A DNA stretch of 64,000 nucleotides from a virus, in IMG/VR virus record IMGVR_UViG_3300042892_003562, positions 9,926 to 73,925 of that record. One strand, written 5' to 3'. Shown in pieces: positions 829-56,834 of this stretch. A program made the translations under genes and the position numbers. The notes under the pieces were generated by a model. That model did no database searches and was not told the origin of the DNA. It was given only the letters and a program-made list of their open reading frames with translations. The stretch's first letter is position 1, and each line of letters opens with the position of its first letter.

Positions 829-1110
829 ATGAAGAAGAACCGAACCCCGAGCACCCTTCCGAAGATCCCCTGTGGAGACCAACTGCGCGAGGCGTGGCTG
901 GAAGCCGTCGAACTGCACGCCATCGTAGCCAAGCTCCTTGGTGACTTGGACAGTGCGGTGACGCTTGCGAACGACGAAAAGCCTGACGCGAAGGTGGAGG
1001 CCAAGGAGGCCAAGGAAGCCATTCACGACCTGACCGTCAAGGCTCTGGCCATCCGCGACATGATCACCGTGTGGCAAGCGTGGGCCTCGGAAAGCTCCGA
1101 CATCGACTGA
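829..1110 (+). CDS. hypothetical protein (helical)
   Basis: 93-aa ORF in the + strand early gene array. Confidence 0.65.
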   Translation: MKKNRTPSTLPKIPCGDQLREAWLEAVELHAIVAKLLGDLDSAVTLANDEKPDAKVEAKEAKEAIHDLTVKALAIRDMITVWQAWASESSDID

Positions 1111-1203
1111 CATGACCGCCAAGCAAATCCGCAAGTGCCAAGACGAGATGATCCGTCTCCGTCTGAAGTGGCTCGACGAGAAAATCCGTAACAACCGAAG
1201 AAA

Positions 1204-1449
1204 ATGAACAACATCCTTGAAGAAGTATTCCTCCATTCCGACGTGCGGGGCGGCTATGCCGTCGGCTTCCAGATATACGGCGCTGGAGGCGTCGGAGACA
1301 GGATTGGCTACATAGTGAAGCACCAACATCTAGGACACGTCCTAGGCGTCACGGAGGGACTCAATACGCCGCATCTCTCGCCTTCGCACTTGAAGACCAT
1401 CGCCGAACGGCTACAAACCCTCAATGAGCGCCAAGAAAAAGCCCGTTAA
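1204..1449 (+). CDS. hypothetical protein
   Basis: 81-aa ORF in the early gene array. Confidence 0.6.
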   Translation: MNNILEEVFLHSDVRGGYAVGFQIYGAGGVGDRIGYIVKHQHLGHVLGVTEGLNTPHLSPSHLKTIAERLQTLNERQEKAR

Positions 1450-1516
1450 ACGCCGAACTGACATCACCCGTCCTCGAAACGGTGGACAATGGTCGGAAGC
1501 GATAATACAGGCTTGA
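1424..1516 (+). pseudogene. orphaned 5' fragment of the HNH gene at 1978-2445 (MSAKKKPVKRRTDITRPRNGGQWSEAIIQA*)
   Basis: Repeats the RPxNGGQW motif of the downstream ORF; GGACAATGG occurs at 1484 and 2080, flanking the inserted HNH. Confidence 0.7.
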
Positions 1517-1547
1517 CTGGAGCGAAGCTGTTCTTTACATCATTCAA

Positions 1548-2075
1548 ATGATCACCAATAAAATCGCATCCATTTATTTCTCATACAATCCGGAATCAGG
1601 AGTGATTACAAGGATTGCTCCAACGATCCGGAAAAATGGAAGGTCTCATTCACAAGGAATAGGACAGCCATGCGAAGCCATAATGAATAGTGGATATTTA
1701 TACACATCCATATCCCATGAAGGGAGAAAATGGAGAATCCTTGCTCATCGTTTAGCGTGGTTACTCCATTATGGAGTTCATCCTGAAAATCAAGTTGATC
1801 ACATCAACGGAAAACGCGACGATAATAGAGTCTCAAACTTAAGAGCCGCAACCAACAGAGAAAATCAATGCAATCGGCACAAAAAAGTAGGCATGAGTAA
1901 AGATTTGCCAATCGGAGTCTACAGAATCACTCGAAAAGGAAGACCCGGAATCTGGTATGCAGTTCACCTAGAAATCAATGGACAAAGAAAAAGCACTTCA
2001 AAAAGATGCCTCCAAGCCGCGATTGAAACACGCAAAGACTGGGAAAAGAAATACTTCAATCGAGAGGCCGTATAA
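1548..2075 (+). CDS. free-standing HNH homing endonuclease (HNH_3 type, AP2-like C-terminus)
   Basis: Motif LAHRLAWLLHYG...VDHINGKRDDNRVSNLRAAT...N; AT-rich relative to flanks. Confidence 0.9.
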   Translation: MITNKIASIYFSYNPESGVITRIAPTIRKNGRSHSQGIGQPCEAIMNSGYLYTSISHEGRKWRILAHRLAWLLHYGVHPENQVDHINGKRDDNRVSNLRAATNRENQCNRHKKVGMSKDLPIGVYRITRKGRPGIWYAVHLEINGQRKSTSKRCLQAAIETRKDWEKKYFNREAV

Positions 2076-2445
2076 TGGAGGACAATGGACTCGCGCCAGA
2101 ATGACCTCCTTCATCAAAAGCGCCTTGCGCGGAGCCCGCTGGCCGCAAAAATACGAGTGCATCAAGGCGGCGTTCGTCGAGCACGGGATCAATCCGGCCA
2201 CCGGCCACAAGTGCAAGTTGCACAAATGCCCAGAATGCCAAGGGTTGTTCCCGCAAAACATGATGCACGCCGACCACATTGTTCCCGTCGTTGGACCGGA
2301 AGGTTTCAAGACATGGGACCTGTTCATCGAGCGGTTGTTTTGCGAAGCGGACGGCTTCCGCGCCCTCTGCAAACCCTGTCACAACCTCCAAACCTCAAAG
2401 GAACGCGCCGGACGCACCTTTGAAAAGCTTCTCTTCCCTCTTTAG
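1978..2445 (+). CDS. HNH/zinc-finger endonuclease (NGGQW...FIKSALR phage family)
   Basis: CPEC...ADHIVPVV...LCKPCH motifs; the stop TAG lies inside palindrome copy 2441. Confidence 0.85.
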   Translation: MDKEKALQKDASKPRLKHAKTGKRNTSIERPYNGGQWTRARMTSFIKSALRGARWPQKYECIKAAFVEHGINPATGHKCKLHKCPECQGLFPQNMMHADHIVPVVGPEGFKTWDLFIERLFCEADGFRALCKPCHNLQTSKERAGRTFEKLLFPL

Positions 2446-2501
2446 CCCGGCTAAAGCCCTTCGGGCTGGGGACCATTTTGTATTCTCAGAACACCAACCA
2501 A

Positions 2502-3230
2502 TCAACAAACCTTTGATCCTTTTTTAAGGTTGTCAATCCACCACAATGGTTGCAAGTTGCTGAAATGTAATAAGGGGATTAACGCCTCCAATGTTAATGC
2601 CGATGAGATAGGAACGCGATGATCTATGTGCCAACCACGACTCCCATAATTATCCCAAGACATCCCATCAATAAAACAGGACTCAATATGATTCTTGAGT
2701 TCTTCATAAGAACAGCCCAAATAGCTTTCAGATCCAAGCTTCTTATTCTTCTTAAGAGCGTAATGAATGCGTGACCTTGTGTTCAGAGTGATTTTACGAA
2801 GATGGCCTCCATTCTCAACCCATTGCTTTCTTCTTTTGTTTATTTCAGGACGATTTCTCGATTGATACTTTCCAACCTTAGTTTCCCACTTCTCTGAATA
2901 GGCCTTAACCTTTTCTGGATTCGCTCTCCTCCATGCTTTCGCGTATTCCTTTAACTTTTCTTTATTTTCCAATCTATATTTCCTTCTTTTATCTGAAATC
3001 TTCTCATGATTTTCACTCGCCCAATTGGCGTGATACTCCTTCCTTTTTTCTTTGCTTGTTTTTAATTTCAGCTCATCACGATATCTTCTTGAGGCTTCAT
3101 TCTCATCAAGTTTAATTTTCTGGAACGTTTCTGGATCTGTCCAAAACTCAGATCGTAAACCTCTTCGGCTTTGATACCGAACAAATACTTTTCCGTCCTC
3201 ACGGACCATCCCACGAATAAAAATCTCCAT
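2502..3230 (-). CDS. HNH endonuclease with Lys/Arg-rich helical repeats, inverted relative to neighbours
   Basis: GMSWDNYG..WHIDHRVP...FSNLQPLW..DNLKKG motif; very AT-rich; start placed at MEIFIRG (3230). Confidence 0.88.
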   Translation of the reverse strand: MEIFIRGMVREDGKVFVRYQSRRGLRSEFWTDPETFQKIKLDENEASRRYRDELKLKTSKEKRKEYHANWASENHEKISDKRRKYRLENKEKLKEYAKAWRRANPEKVKAYSEKWETKVGKYQSRNRPEINKRRKQWVENGGHLRKITLNTRSRIHYALKKNKKLGSESYLGCSYEELKNHIESCFIDGMSWDNYGSRGWHIDHRVPISSALTLEALIPLLHFSNLQPLWWIDNLKKGSKVC

Positions 3231-3291
3231 GAAGAAAAAATACAAAACTTCATGGATTAATCAAATTAATTCCCAATAGAAGACCAACACC

Positions 3292-4299
3292 ATGAGCGCA
3301 GGACTTACCGCCAGAGACAGACAAACCGGGCTTGAACAGGCATGGCATCGCGAGACGAACATCGTCGACGTCGTGACCCGTGAGAATTCAATGCCTTACG
3401 AGATCATCGAAGCCCCCATCCAATACCGGGTGTTCGACAACATCGAGGGATTCCCCGTCGAACGGATCATCGAGGACACCGAATATAAGCGGCTGATCGC
3501 CAGCGACGACTTCCAGCCGATTGGCGAGCCGTTCGCCAAGTCCTACTGCCCCGGTTCCATCGCCGGGTTCTGGGAAATCATCCGCAAGGGGATGGGAGAC
3601 ACGCCATATCAGGTGGCGAGCGCCGGAACCGTGGACGACCGTTGCAAGCTGTTCGCCTCCATCAAGGTGAACGAGGGCTTCCACGTCGGCGACCGCGAGT
3701 TCAAGGACTACATCACCCTCATCGACTCGTTCGACAAAACCACCTCGTTGCAAGCACGTTACAGCAACATCTGCGTGGTGTGTGCGAATACTTACGCGAT
3801 GGTGATGAATTCGGGCAGCCAGCTCGGCAAGGCCAAGCACACCACCTTCATGGAGTTGAACGTCGAACGGCTGATCGCCGCCATCGACGCCTTCGCGGGC
3901 ACCAGCGCTTCCAACAAGGTGATGCTCCAGAAGGCCTACGAGACCCAGTGCAGCCGCGACGAGGCCCGCGCATGGGTGACAGGCATCGAGGGACGCAACG
4001 CCACCGCGTCCGGCCTGACCAACGGCATGTTGCAGAAGACCGCACGCATCATCGAGTTGTTCGACAACGGACGCGGCAACGAGGGACGCACCCGTCTGGA
4101 CGCGTTCTCGGCCATGACCGACTTCCACAGCAACGAGTCGACCAACCGCAAGGAGGCCGGATCGCAGCGCTACACCAGCGAGTGGGGGGCTTCGGCCCAG
4201 ACCAAGAACCTCGTGGCCACCCGCTTCGAACAGGACTGGACGACCAACGTCCGCCGTGGAGAGGGACTGCTGGACCGCAACCTCGCCCTCACCGCCTGA
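3292..4299 (+). CDS. DUF932-family phage/plasmid protein
   Basis: N-terminal AWH, DSFDKTTS..RYSNICVVCANT and KHT motifs, C-terminal AFSAMTDFHSN; 335 aa. Confidence 0.75.
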   Translation: MSAGLTARDRQTGLEQAWHRETNIVDVVTRENSMPYEIIEAPIQYRVFDNIEGFPVERIIEDTEYKRLIASDDFQPIGEPFAKSYCPGSIAGFWEIIRKGMGDTPYQVASAGTVDDRCKLFASIKVNEGFHVGDREFKDYITLIDSFDKTTSLQARYSNICVVCANTYAMVMNSGSQLGKAKHTTFMELNVERLIAAIDAFAGTSASNKVMLQKAYETQCSRDEARAWVTGIEGRNATASGLTNGMLQKTARIIELFDNGRGNEGRTRLDAFSAMTDFHSNESTNRKEAGSQRYTSEWGASAQTKNLVATRFEQDWTTNVRRGEGLLDRNLALTA

Positions 4300-9668: not shown

Positions 9669-10162
9669 AATCAAAGACACACGCAATGGCGGAAGCCATC
9701 ACCGCAGCCCTCGGCCCGATCTTCCACGCCAACCCCGACTACAAGACCATCACCGAAGCCATCGCGCTGACCGTGGCGCGTGTCGCTCAGTCCACCCCAG
9801 ACAAGGGTAACGAGGAAGAAGAGCTTGAAATCATCATGCAAATCGCAGCCAATGCCCTCAACGTATTCCTCAATGAAGAGCAAACCATCCAAGAAACCAA
9901 AGCCAAGGTCTTGGCTAAAGGAATTGATGGATTTGCAGAGATGTATGGACCCGTCAACGGACTCGCCGCCATCAACGGAGGCGTGTCACCCGAAGCCTGT
10001 GCGGAAGCCGAAGAGTTTGCTGGACAAGACCACTCCGAAGAAAGCTGGGCGAACAGTTCCATCCATCAAGAAATCGCCCGGTTTGAACAAGAGCATCCAG
10101 AGGTCAATAATGGATACGAGCCCGACCGCCACAACCCGGACGGAGCCAGAGCTTACCTATGA
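9665..10162 (+). CDS. hypothetical protein
   Basis: 165 aa, ATGA-coupled. Confidence 0.7.
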   Translation: MKSKTHAMAEAITAALGPIFHANPDYKTITEAIALTVARVAQSTPDKGNEEEELEIIMQIAANALNVFLNEEQTIQETKAKVLAKGIDGFAEMYGPVNGLAAINGGVSPEACAEAEEFAGQDHSEESWANSSIHQEIARFEQEHPEVNNGYEPDRHNPDGARAYL

Positions 10163-53708: not shown

Positions 53709-56492
53709 TCACCGCATCTTTCTGCCCACCGTCGTCAACAAGTTGCGCTTGGTCACCACCTTGGCCCAGCCCTTGTTGACCATCTTCGCCACCTTCTGGA
53801 CCTCGTCGCTCTTGAAATGCCCCAGCGTAATCGCCTTCTCCACCAACAGGTTGAACGTGTCCGCCATGTCCGGACTCCGCTTGAGACGCTTCTTCGCCTC
53901 CTCCTTGCTCTCCACCCTGACCGTCCGCCCCTCCTTCTCGTGGTATTCCCTCTCGATCAACTCCGCGATGAGCGCCTTGCTCACCCCCGTGATCTGCCCC
54001 GAACGGATGAACTCCTTCGGCTGAATCCACAGCTCGCTGTTCTTGTTGAAATAGCCGCAGTCCTCGTTACGGAAGACAATCGTCCGGTCGCTCGCCTTGC
54101 CTTGGAAATTCACCTTCTGAACCGCCGACGACCACTCCATGTCCACGACATGACCGAACGGCGTTCCCGCTCCCGTGTTGTCCATGATCGCACGCGTCGG
54201 CTTCACGTCCCACTCCTCGCACAGCTTCTTCCAGCCCCTCACCGTCTGGTGCGTCAGCGCCACCGCCTTGTTCAGGACGTCGTCCTCGATGGTCTGGTAG
54301 CAGCACAGGTGCAGGTGATCCCTACCGTCCACCTTCCCCAGCTTCCCGATCAACGCCTGACTCCTGTCCCCGCCACGGCTGTGCGCCGGGTCAATCGACC
54401 CCAGCGTGCTCGGCGTGTTGTCCCAGATCGGCTCCCGCTCCTCCATCGCCCCGGCATTCAAAAACTCCACCTCCGAGTAAATCGAATTGCTCGTCCCGTC
54501 AGGACACCAGAACGCCTTCACAAACCGGTAATACCCTCGGCTCGTCTTCCCGCCCCGCTTCTCCGCAATCCGGTCGCAATACCCCTGATCCGTCATCCAC
54601 TTGATGTGCCCGTAAAGCTCAGGGTGGGTGATACGGGGACACTGCTCCGCATTCAACCGGATGCAAGCCCCATACTTGGTCGTCCACCGCTCGTCGTTCT
54701 CCGTCACACTCCGCCAACCTGCCTTCGGCTCGCACAGGTCCCCGAACGGGTCGGTCAACCGGTCCGGGTTGGCCATCCCCACGAACATCAACCGCTCGTT
54801 CGACGTCATGTTCTCATACGCCGTCGTCAGAATCCCGTCCGTCAAATGGTTGAACTCGTCCGCCGCCACAATCACGTTCGGATTCTTGATCCCCAGCAAC
54901 TCGTCCGACGCACCGTCCGACGCACTTCCCGCTGGCTTCAACAACACCCCGCTGTTCCGGTCGGTCCCCATGCTCTGGTTCAGCCCCTTGATGTAGCCGT
55001 TCGAGTCGATCAACTTCCCCGGACACCCCTTCTTCTGAGCCTGCGCCCACAACTGCGTGATGCTCTTCCAAATCCGCGTCCGAGCCGCATCCTTCGTCGT
55101 CGACATCACAATGAAGAACGTCTCCGTCGGACGCGCCCAATACTCCATAAGTCCATACAACGCAACACCATGCGACTTCCCAGAGTTGTGGTGGATTGCG
55201 CCTTCTGCGAAATAATGATGCTCAACCGGAACATTGAGGTCATAAAAATCATGGGTTCCGACACTTGTGATTGACTCGACCTGAATAAGTGGCACCATCA
55301 ATCCCGATGAGTGCATGGAGTAAAAACAAGGAGAGGAATGATCGGATTGTCCAACTGTTTCAAGAGCTTGGCAGCACCCGTCTGGTTGCTGACAAGGTTG
55401 GAATGTCTGTTTCGATGATCGGTCATATTCTGAATAAGAGGGGGATTCCAACACCGAGAACAGGGAGACGCCACAACCCATACGCGGCATGTGACCTCCA
55501 CTCGGCAAAGGTTCTGGAAATGTGCGAAGCTGGATACAACCTTTCGCAAATTGCGAGAGTCGTTGGAACCAAGAACGAAGAGGTGAAGAAGTTCCTGAGA
55601 CGGAACGGCGTGACAAAAGAATTCCCGAAAGCAACCTACGGAGAAAAGCACTACGCATGGAAAGGACGGCTACTCGATAAAGACGGCTACGTCTTGATCC
55701 ATTGCAAGGGTCATCCGAACGCCCGGAAGCACACCCACTACATTTTCGAACATCGTCTTGTCGTGGAAGCGGACCTCGGGCGCTATCTCTTGCCGACTGA
55801 AGTAATCCACCACTTGGATGGAGATAAGCAGAATAACTCGGTTGAGAACCTTCAAGTGTTCCAGAGCAACGGCGAGCACCTTGCCGTGGATCTTGCCGGT
55901 CGCTGTCCAAAATGGACCCCGCAGGGCAAGGAGCGTATCCGTAAAGCTCTTCTCCAACGGTGGTCTGACTGGCGAACTTCCAACCAGAACGAGTCAGAAG
56001 ACGGTGCTCTCCCGTGCATTTGAACGAATTTCCGTCACTCAGCCGAAACTCGAACAGCTCAGCCGTCCCCTTCAAATAAGGGACATCGGCCAGAACCGGA
56101 CCATGGAGTGTCATCACCCATGGTCTTTTTTTGTCTTCACACAAACTCTGAATCGTCGGCTGTTCACCAGTCTTCGGGTCCAGCATCCGCGTGTCACCCG
56201 AAACGCACGACGACGCCCCCGCAATCCCCAGAAACCTTTTATCGCTCCAGTCCCCAATCAACTCCCTCACAATCAACTCCAACCACGGCGTCCACAACAC
56301 CCGGCAAATACTTCCCTCACAGTTAAACGCCAAATCCACCGCCCCCTTGAAATACCTGAACCGATCCGCTGGCTCAATCAACGTCCCGTCCCCCTTCTCC
56401 TTCCCCAACGAAAACATCCACAACAAACACACCAACTCCTCTGCCCCCAAGGGAAACTCACACCCGTCAATCACCGGCCCGCGCTGTATCAT
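53709..56492 (-). CDS. terL: terminase large subunit, intein-containing precursor
   Basis: Spliced Walker A GASS|SGKS, Walker B IVAADE, coupling motif MANP, nuclease IDPA..GGD and SPDMADT; start at MIQRGP (56492) or 56501. Confidence 0.92.
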   Translation of the reverse strand: MIQRGPVIDGCEFPLGAEELVCLLWMFSLGKEKGDGTLIEPADRFRYFKGAVDLAFNCEGSICRVLWTPWLELIVRELIGDWSDKRFLGIAGASSCVSGDTRMLDPKTGEQPTIQSLCEDKKRPWVMTLHGPVLADVPYLKGTAELFEFRLSDGNSFKCTGEHRLLTRSGWKFASQTTVGEELYGYAPCPAGSILDSDRQDPRQGARRCSGTLEGSQPSYSAYLHPSGGLLQSARDSARGPLPRQDDVRKCSGCASGRSDDPCNGSRRSRLYRVAVLSMRSAFLRRLLSGILLSRRSVSGTSSPLRSWFQRLSQFAKGCIQLRTFPEPLPSGGHMPRMGCGVSLFSVLESPSYSEYDRSSKQTFQPCQQPDGCCQALETVGQSDHSSPCFYSMHSSGLMVPLIQVESITSVGTHDFYDLNVPVEHHYFAEGAIHHNSGKSHGVALYGLMEYWARPTETFFIVMSTTKDAARTRIWKSITQLWAQAQKKGCPGKLIDSNGYIKGLNQSMGTDRNSGVLLKPAGSASDGASDELLGIKNPNVIVAADEFNHLTDGILTTAYENMTSNERLMFVGMANPDRLTDPFGDLCEPKAGWRSVTENDERWTTKYGACIRLNAEQCPRITHPELYGHIKWMTDQGYCDRIAEKRGGKTSRGYYRFVKAFWCPDGTSNSIYSEVEFLNAGAMEEREPIWDNTPSTLGSIDPAHSRGGDRSQALIGKLGKVDGRDHLHLCCYQTIEDDVLNKAVALTHQTVRGWKKLCEEWDVKPTRAIMDNTGAGTPFGHVVDMEWSSAVQKVNFQGKASDRTIVFRNEDCGYFNKNSELWIQPKEFIRSGQITGVSKALIAELIEREYHEKEGRTVRVESKEEAKKRLKRSPDMADTFNLLVEKAITLGHFKSDEVQKVAKMVNKGWAKVVTKRNLLTTVGRKMR
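55185..56207 (-). mobile_element. intein (341 aa) in the TerL Walker A motif
   Basis: Block A CVSGDT, block B KCTGEHRLLT, block F FYDLNV..HHYFAEG, block G IHHN followed by +1 Ser. Confidence 0.93.
55307..56023 (+). CDS. HTH-HNH homing endonuclease encoded antisense within the intein
   Basis: Two HTH-like segments, then HYAWKG..DGYVLI..HP..YIFEHRLVVE..LGRYL...EVIHHLDGDKQNNSVENL. Confidence 0.9.
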   Translation: MSAWSKNKERNDRIVQLFQELGSTRLVADKVGMSVSMIGHILNKRGIPTPRTGRRHNPYAACDLHSAKVLEMCEAGYNLSQIARVVGTKNEEVKKFLRRNGVTKEFPKATYGEKHYAWKGRLLDKDGYVLIHCKGHPNARKHTHYIFEHRLVVEADLGRYLLPTEVIHHLDGDKQNNSVENLQVFQSNGEHLAVDLAGRCPKWTPQGKERIRKALLQRWSDWRTSNQNESEDGALPCI

Positions 56493-56528
56493 ACCCACCA
56501 CTTACATTCAACCAACCCTCACTGTCAA
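56493..56528 (-). promoter_or_regulatory. candidate sigma70-type leaderless promoter of terL
   Basis: TTGACA begins 36 nt before the ATG; palindrome 56552 is 24 nt further upstream. Confidence 0.5.
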
Positions 56529-56834
56529 CACTTCCTTACCGCCACCACCTCTTTAGCCGGGCTAAAATATTTTTATTTTTCCACATCGGTTTTTTCATAA
56601 CCTATTGAAAATTAATGTTTTTTTCACGACGAACCCATACTGTCCTTCTCTTCTGTATGTAGTAGTTGGGCTTGATAGGAGGACCCGTCGCCCTACCTAG
56701 GCCCCCTCTGAGGCTCTGTGAGCGTCAGTGAGGAGCCTACGCTACAGCCTGTAGCCACTGCATCACGTTGATGTAGCCTACGACATGAGCCAACACCAGC
56801 AGCGTAGCTCACTGCACTATAGAGACATACGACT

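Follow-up and report, generated by a model that had tools for sequence, protein, structure and literature searches.

An intein in the Walker A motif of a phage terminase large subunit with an HNH endonuclease gene on the opposite strand

Inteins with an endonuclease open reading frame (ORF) on the strand opposite to the host gene have been described. Antisense LAGLIDADG ORFs were reported in the inteins of Synechocystis DnaX and of a Chloroflexus SpoVR-like protein (Gorbalenya 1998; Gogarten 2002; both as summarized in bioRxiv 10.1101/2025.01.02.630785), and antisense LAGLIDADG and VSR-like ORFs in inteins of actinophage terminase large subunit (TerL), capsid, polymerase and ThyX proteins (Gosselin, Arsenault and Gogarten, bioRxiv 10.1101/2025.01.02.630785). 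In that preprint HNH endonucleases were found only in frame, the antisense layouts were called rare and proposed to be short-lived, and invasion of inteins by free-standing endonucleases was proposed as their origin. The DNA analyzed here (the window) is a stretch of 64,000 nucleotides (nt), positions 9,926 to 73,925 of IMG/VR record IMGVR_UViG_3300042892_003562, a complete 73.9-kb virus record with direct terminal repeats from a phage that turns up in lake-water metagenomes. On its minus strand the window encodes a TerL precursor with an intein in the Walker A motif (P-loop), and the opposite strand of that intein carries an intact HNH endonuclease gene. The two very probably form a composite selfish element that uses both strands.

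The locus shares several features with the cases of Gosselin et al.: an endonuclease ORF is placed antisense between intein blocks B and F, the intein frame reads through it without a stop, no fold can be recognized in the in-frame middle, TerL is a favoured host, and a sporadic distribution suggests ongoing invasion. It differs from them in the nuclease, which combines two helix-turn-helix (HTH) modules with an HNH_3 domain (HTH-HTH-HNH_3) and is neither LAGLIDADG nor VSR-like; in abundance, since at least 575 IMG/VR stretches were matched, with one codon phase in the best 80 loci; and in its carriers, which are phages of Gammaproteobacteria and freshwater phages rather than actinophages. Full-text literature searches returned no report of an antisense HNH endonuclease in an intein. 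The layout is an HNH variant of an already described non-canonical intein architecture, of which the HNH type alone seems undescribed. The original prediction, made by a model from the letters of the window, had claimed a distinct two-strand mobile element; the element is gained or lost whole, has both strands under selection and occurs in cultured phages, and it is not a new kind, because antisense endonuclease ORFs in inteins were already on record.

Related arrangements are also known outside this group. The ShiLan domain consists of hidden, out-of-frame HNH insertions in phage DNA methylases that have no intein (Arsenault et al. 2025, PMC11855218); there, as here, the host gene that encloses the HNH gene keeps a frame without stops, whereas the ShiLan insertions lie on the same strand in another frame without a splicing domain, and the HNH gene of the window is antisense and flanked by complete Hint lobes. 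Residues 1-191 of the window's HNH protein showed distant similarity (26%) to an HNH-like stretch inside methylase genes of cluster J mycobacteriophages, possibly the same kind of insertion as in PMC11855218. At 2001-2495 of Mycobacterium phage KashFlow (L105, MW314846.1) a distant HNH relative (26% identity) sits within a same-strand gene that is annotated as a DNA methylase, resembling the insertions of that paper. Fractured genes with split inteins likewise have a free-standing-type endonuclease gene between the intein halves (Dassa et al. 2009, PMC2677866), in that case with two ORFs and trans-splicing, whereas one ORF reads through here. Mycobacteriophage terminase inteins (Kelley et al. 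2016, PMC5050341) share the position in the TerL Walker A motif and the evidence of horizontal spread. That paper mentions no antisense or HNH endonuclease arrangement, and its "classic" site lies between Lys and Thr, whereas the insertion in the window precedes SGKS; two relatives of the window's element (L076 and L079) do use the Lys-Thr site.

The TerL precursor is encoded by one continuous ORF of 930 amino acids (aa) in the program's ORF listing (53709..56501, minus strand), of which 589 aa would be left after splicing. The N-extein (aa 1-98; 56208..56501, minus) ends in GIAGASS, the first half of the Walker A motif, and the C-extein (491 aa plus the stop codon; 53709..55184, minus) begins with SGKS, the second half. 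Between them lies a class 1 intein of 341 aa (TerL aa 99-439; 55185..56207, minus) with Cys1, a terminal HN and Ser+1, and with the junctions GASS/CVSGDTRM...AIHHN/SGKS, a slash marking each splice point. Removal of the intein restores GASSSGKS, as read in the intein-less IMG/VR sequence L001, which is without exactly 1023 nt. With the insert removed, aa 73-545 of TerL matched phrog_2 "terminase large subunit" (E 1.9e-9), and the intein-less homologue L001 gave the same value. Searches of Pfam and of PDB sequences with the spliced form gave nothing, so that TerL was identified by PHROGs alone and is regarded as divergent.

Alignments of the Hint and HNH proteins, and the AlphaFold2 runs made from them, used seven sequences each. 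The Hint N-lobe (intein aa 1-95; 55923..56207, minus) holds blocks A and B (block B, CTGEH, 56004-56018, minus), is conserved in the seven sequences and was modelled with a predicted local distance difference test score (pLDDT) of 54-80. The Hint C-lobe (intein aa 301-341; 55185..55307, minus) holds blocks F (FYDLNVP) and G (AIHHN, 55185-55199, minus). C1, T65 and H68 (the TxxH of block B), D323 of block F, H339, H340, N341 and Ser+1 were invariant. The 205 residues between the lobes (intein aa 96-300; 55308..55922, minus) form a Ser/Arg/Leu/Gly/Pro-rich stretch. It had no match in a Pfam search, and in the AlphaFold2 model intein aa 91-304 had a pLDDT below 30, with the Hint strands confident. 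Its amino acids differ by 63% between lineages, where the Hint lobes stay conserved, and its isoelectric point takes values from 4.5 to 9.4. The intein middle is an unstructured linker selected only for the absence of stops.

The opposite strand of this region encodes the HTH-HTH-HNH_3 endonuclease (238 aa; 55307..56023, plus strand), as identified by Pfam, PHROGs, alignment and AlphaFold2. The protein matched Pfam HNH_3 with 35.6 bits (cut-off 24.8) and phrog_10730 "HNH endonuclease" with E 8.9e-27, and its N-terminal part gave weak HTH matches. HNH_3 is a family typical of homing endonucleases. In the alignment across lineages 118 columns were invariant, including H168, H169, N177, N181, N188 and H191. 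Two helical, HTH-like modules were modelled in aa 1-100 (pLDDT about 80-90), and a PDB profile search with the HNH alignment returned a designed HTH repeat and nothing else. The ORF is antisense to intein aa 62-301; its 3'-terminal codons run into block B, and its ATG borders on the Hint C-lobe. The original prediction had proposed a complete intein in the TerL Walker A motif and an intact antisense gene whose 3' end overlaps block B and whose ATG is preceded, 36 nt upstream, by a TTGACT box; the coordinates that it stated for intein, gene and box were all confirmed.

One relative, L019, has an HNH gene (2830-3690, plus) whose product is extended at the N-terminus by a further HTH module of about 49 aa; the L019 intein, at 390 aa, is longer by the matching 49 codons. 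This is an in-frame indel tolerated on both strands.

The two overlapping frames were compared in eight intein-plus sequences, namely the window and L006, L010, L015-L018 and L019 from IMG/VR. In all eight the TerL frame is open, the HNH ORF is intact and the phase is identical. By coordinate arithmetic HNH codon positions 1, 2 and 3 face TerL positions 1, 3 and 2, which is not the codon-aligned phase of a shadow ORF. The number of stops expected in the TerL frame was obtained by keeping the HNH protein fixed and redrawing synonymous codons from the HNH genes' own usage. Shuffles of the window gave a mean of 6.4 stops, and zero stops in only 0.06% of cases. Each of the eight loci has none, against 6-13 expected (P(0) ≤0.0006), and the host frame was likewise free of stops in 80/80 of the best loci from a wider search (median expectation 6.8). 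A stop arises in the TerL frame where an HNH codon ending in TT, TC or CT precedes a codon starting with A; at such at-risk dipeptides the six lineages used stop-making endings in 0/140 cases, and the same amino acids use them elsewhere about 60% of the time. A stop in the terL frame across the HNH gene would be lethal because terL is essential, so the HNH gene uses only those codon pairs that leave the antisense frame open.

Substitutions point the same way. Sites differing at TerL codon positions 1, 2 and 3 amounted to 0.30, 0.15 and 0.60 in the Hint N-lobe and to 0.09, 0.12 and 0.51 in the Hint C-lobe, and in the intein middle to 0.25, 0.54 and 0.19, which is the order 3 > 1 > 2 in HNH codon positions. 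In the close pair formed by the window and L006, HNH positions 3, 1 and 2 differ at 0.249, 0.034 and 0.020 of sites. The Hint lobes are under purifying selection in the TerL frame and the HNH gene is strongly so in its own, and this pattern indicates that the intein middle is selected only to be stop-free. Six independent lineages retain the identical layout. Here, too, the original prediction was borne out: it had held that the frames are not codon-aligned (HNH position 2 facing TerL position 3), that both strands are selected and that the centre of the intein frame is no real domain. It had also suggested testing whether the antisense HNH gene and the open intein frame are conserved jointly, and in the homologues with the intein they are.

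Long antisense ORFs do occur in terL. A 485-aa Arg/Pro/Leu-rich ORF (53817-55274, plus) runs opposite the TerL C-extein with its codons aligned to those of TerL; it has the look of the usual shadow ORF in a GC-rich gene rather than of a real gene, and is not comparable to the HNH frame. It lends some colour to a reading by chance or annotation artefact, in which one of the two frames at the intein would be such a shadow ORF, or the insert an intron or a split ("fractured") gene. The strong family matches of the HNH frame and its coding-type substitution pattern argue against that reading, as do the phase, which is not codon-aligned, and the TerL frame, which is open in every lineage where 6-13 stops were expected; the probability left to it is negligible. 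The reading is refuted by the stop statistics together with the substitutions by codon position. Searches for a group I intron or other RNA family in Rfam gave no match at E up to 0.1. A split intein or fractured gene is ruled out, there being no stop between the Hint lobes and a single ORF in the window and in all relatives.

The element is polymorphic for presence and absence. Intein-less alleles were found in the IMG/VR sequences L001-L005, L007, L009 and L011-L013. Between L001 and the window the N-exteins are 100% and the C-exteins 99% identical, the junction is identical, and exactly the intein is missing. The lake metagenome runs X7 and X8 each contain a contig in which 55183 is followed directly by 56207, omitting the 1023 nt at 55184-56206 (in X8 a 6.6-kb contig with a depth of 20.6), and other contigs of the same run carry the intein with 0 mismatches; both alleles therefore coexist in one water sample. 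The same omission was seen in X19; two wastewater runs labelled "RNA-Seq" are probably DNA, and contigs only were used. An independent lake metagenome, X2, contains 54781-55996 with 0 mismatches, which shows that the layout is no assembly artefact.

Mapped onto the extein tree, the presence of the intein requires 4-6 gains or losses, its scatter equals that of shuffled labels, and three intein-plus sequences pair with intein-less ones. The TerL proteins of L015-L018 are only 34-35% identical to that of the window, but contain the same element in an identical position of the P-loop, with HNH proteins 67-69% and Hint N-lobes about 70% identical to those of the window. No HNH homologue was found in the genome of G001, an intein-less relative that is 100% complete. 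Intein and HNH gene are acquired or lost together.

Sequence differences next to the insertion site were seen in L002/L003. Compared with the window (55125-55184 and 56208-56267), these have 13 differences within the 60 nt that flank the site on either side and 0-3 per 60 nt beyond; those within 36 nt of the junction are synonymous. L001, which is intein-less, has the window's version of these differences. They may reflect a co-conversion tract or target-site variation.

A profile of the HNH relatives matched at least 575 stretches in IMG/VR, and the best 80 loci were examined. In 80/80 of these an open frame of 394-1124 aa encloses the HNH gene in antisense orientation; many of the loci are truncated by a contig end. 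The HNH proteins are 33-93% identical, all are in codon phase 1-1, a Hint N-lobe was detected in 75/80, and a free-standing HNH gene was found in 0/80. Every insertion point lies in a P-loop, either directly ahead of S/TGK[ST] or of SGAGKS or, in L076 and L079, between Lys and Thr. The exteins include Terminase_3, Terminase_6 and phrog_2 terminases and a non-terminase ATPase family, phrog_5156, so that the element has spread across unrelated terminases and is not limited to them. In L058 and L097 the antisense-HNH intein sits in the P-loop of phrog_5156 proteins of 1035-1100 aa, which have weak TraG-D_C/AAA matches. In L069 (276-2342, minus) the C-extein of the terminase has a second Hint domain (Pfam Hint_2, Intein_splicing), which indicates a TerL with two inteins.

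These distributions bear on two other readings of the HNH gene. In the first, a free-standing HNH gene would have landed by accident in a mini-intein; the two would not move together, and the open terL frame would reflect only that terL is essential. Invasion by free-standing endonucleases has been proposed (bioRxiv 10.1101/2025.01.02.630785), and more distant relatives of the HNH gene are annotated as stand-alone genes in Streptomyces phages. However, the HNH gene and the Hint lobes always occur together and in one codon phase, across the whole range of HNH identities; gain or loss affects both at once, as exactly 1023 nt; and the pair occurs in exteins only 34% identical, with none of the best 80 relatives free-standing. 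An accidental passenger is accordingly considered unlikely.

The second would make the HNH protein an accessory nuclease of packaging, like the HNH proteins encoded beside terminases in HK97-like phages. The gene does lie within a terminase gene, and HNH genes beside terminase genes are common (PMC3592412). Intein-less relatives, both near-identical and more distant and including the 100%-complete genome, have no HNH gene, however. The two HTH DNA-binding modules and the homing-type HNH_3 domain also speak against a role in packaging, as does the presence of the element in the non-terminase ATPase phrog_5156, and we consider such a role highly improbable. The reading as a composite, jointly mobile element agrees with these distributions.

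Two groups of cultured phages carry the arrangement. In Pectobacterium phage Ymer (L103, OP748252.2) an intein-bearing TerL of 754 aa (1107-3371, minus) contains a 232-aa antisense HNH ORF. The host gene is annotated "hypothetical protein" and adjoins the portal gene, its C-extein matches the TerL family phrog_10250 at 3e-48, and seven Pectobacterium/Dickeya phages related to Ymer gave the same match. In the publication on the genus of Ymer there is no mention of an intein or of an HNH endonuclease. In Pseudoalteromonas phage PHS3 (L104, KX912252.1) the true ORF (1191-3317, minus) has 708 aa and reads through the antisense HNH gene, and the P-loop intein has the junctions GGAG/CVHPDT...VHHN/SGKS. 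The GenBank entry of PHS3 annotates a truncated TerL (1191-2366 only) and the HNH ORF as a separate gene. The layout is thus tolerated in viable, cultured phages, which make direct tests possible. Such terminases are mis-annotated in GenBank, gene callers reporting the HNH gene and missing the intein.

A candidate promoter of the HNH gene lies at 55271..55299 (plus), inside the Hint C-lobe coding region: the TTGACT box (55271-55276), a spacer of 16-17 nt and a weak -10 element (CACCAT or ACCATC), from which the ATG is 8 nt away. Six lineages have TTGAC(T/A) without variation at the same distance. Across the wider family, 19/63 distinct upstream regions have TTGAC at -34 to -37, under at least two different Hint codings (Ser-Ile, Val-Lys), and several more distant relatives have TTGACA-17-TATAAT followed by AGGAGG, again inside the Hint C-lobe. 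The geometry of the TTGACT box would place the transcription start approximately at the ATG, and a leaderless mRNA is possible.

In the mechanism proposed for the composite element, a mini-intein on the terL strand, with the two Hint lobes joined by about 205 unstructured and unselected residues, would splice itself out after translation and restore GASS-SGKS. An HTH-HTH-HNH_3 gene of free-standing type would occupy the opposite strand at the place where inteins normally carry their endonuclease domain, and would be expressed as a separate protein from signals within the Hint C-lobe coding region. The HNH protein would most likely cut the intein-less terL of co-infecting phages near the P-loop codons, and repair of the cut would copy the whole element in (homing).

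Several points weigh against this reading. The Pfam Intein_splicing match, split around the insert, scored 34.2 bits, below the gathering cut-off of 35.8 (E 2.7e-8), and AlphaFold2 returned the HNH core with low confidence from the seven-sequence alignment. The window has a poor -10 hexamer and no Shine-Dalgarno sequence, and a consensus promoter scan of 54800-56800 found no site; because a good -10 hexamer is missing, the HNH promoter in the window is only suggested. The loci share kinship, so that locus counts are not counts of independent events. The difference between the window and L001 may be a recent gain or a precise loss. Finally, splicing is deduced from the essential role of TerL and from the cultured carriers, and the indirect evidence for site-specific cleavage of the intein-less allele consists of the presence/absence polymorphism and the spread independent of the exteins; the HNH transcript and protein with their timing, and the cleavage target, are likewise inferred.

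A broader proposal is that the layout is a stable design and not a rare or transitional accident: a single ancient capture would have founded a large clade of P-loop inteins with the nuclease on the opposite strand, in a fixed phase and with its own promoter, which spread to several families of terminases and to one or more other ATPases. We judge the case for and against this proposal to be evenly balanced. If it holds, the nuclease may be produced ahead of the late terminase gene or without dependence on it, and the HNH transcript may modulate terL expression. An intein and its homing nuclease can be separate polypeptides, and a two-strand version can persist, with one codon phase retained from 33% to 93% HNH identity. 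Such persistence bears on the model in which the splicing domain came first and the endonuclease later, and on the short-lived layouts proposed in the 2025 preprint. The locus also offers a clean natural case of dual coding: on one strand selection acts on the protein sequence, and on the other it acts only against stops.

A blastn search of the TerL region against GenBank phages gave 0 matches. Downstream of terL the window continues with further long ORFs on the minus strand. At the other end of the gene, identity between the window and L001 falls from 100% to random exactly at the TerL start (above 56501 in the window; upstream of 3707 in L001), and this drop is a mosaic boundary at the 5' end of terL.

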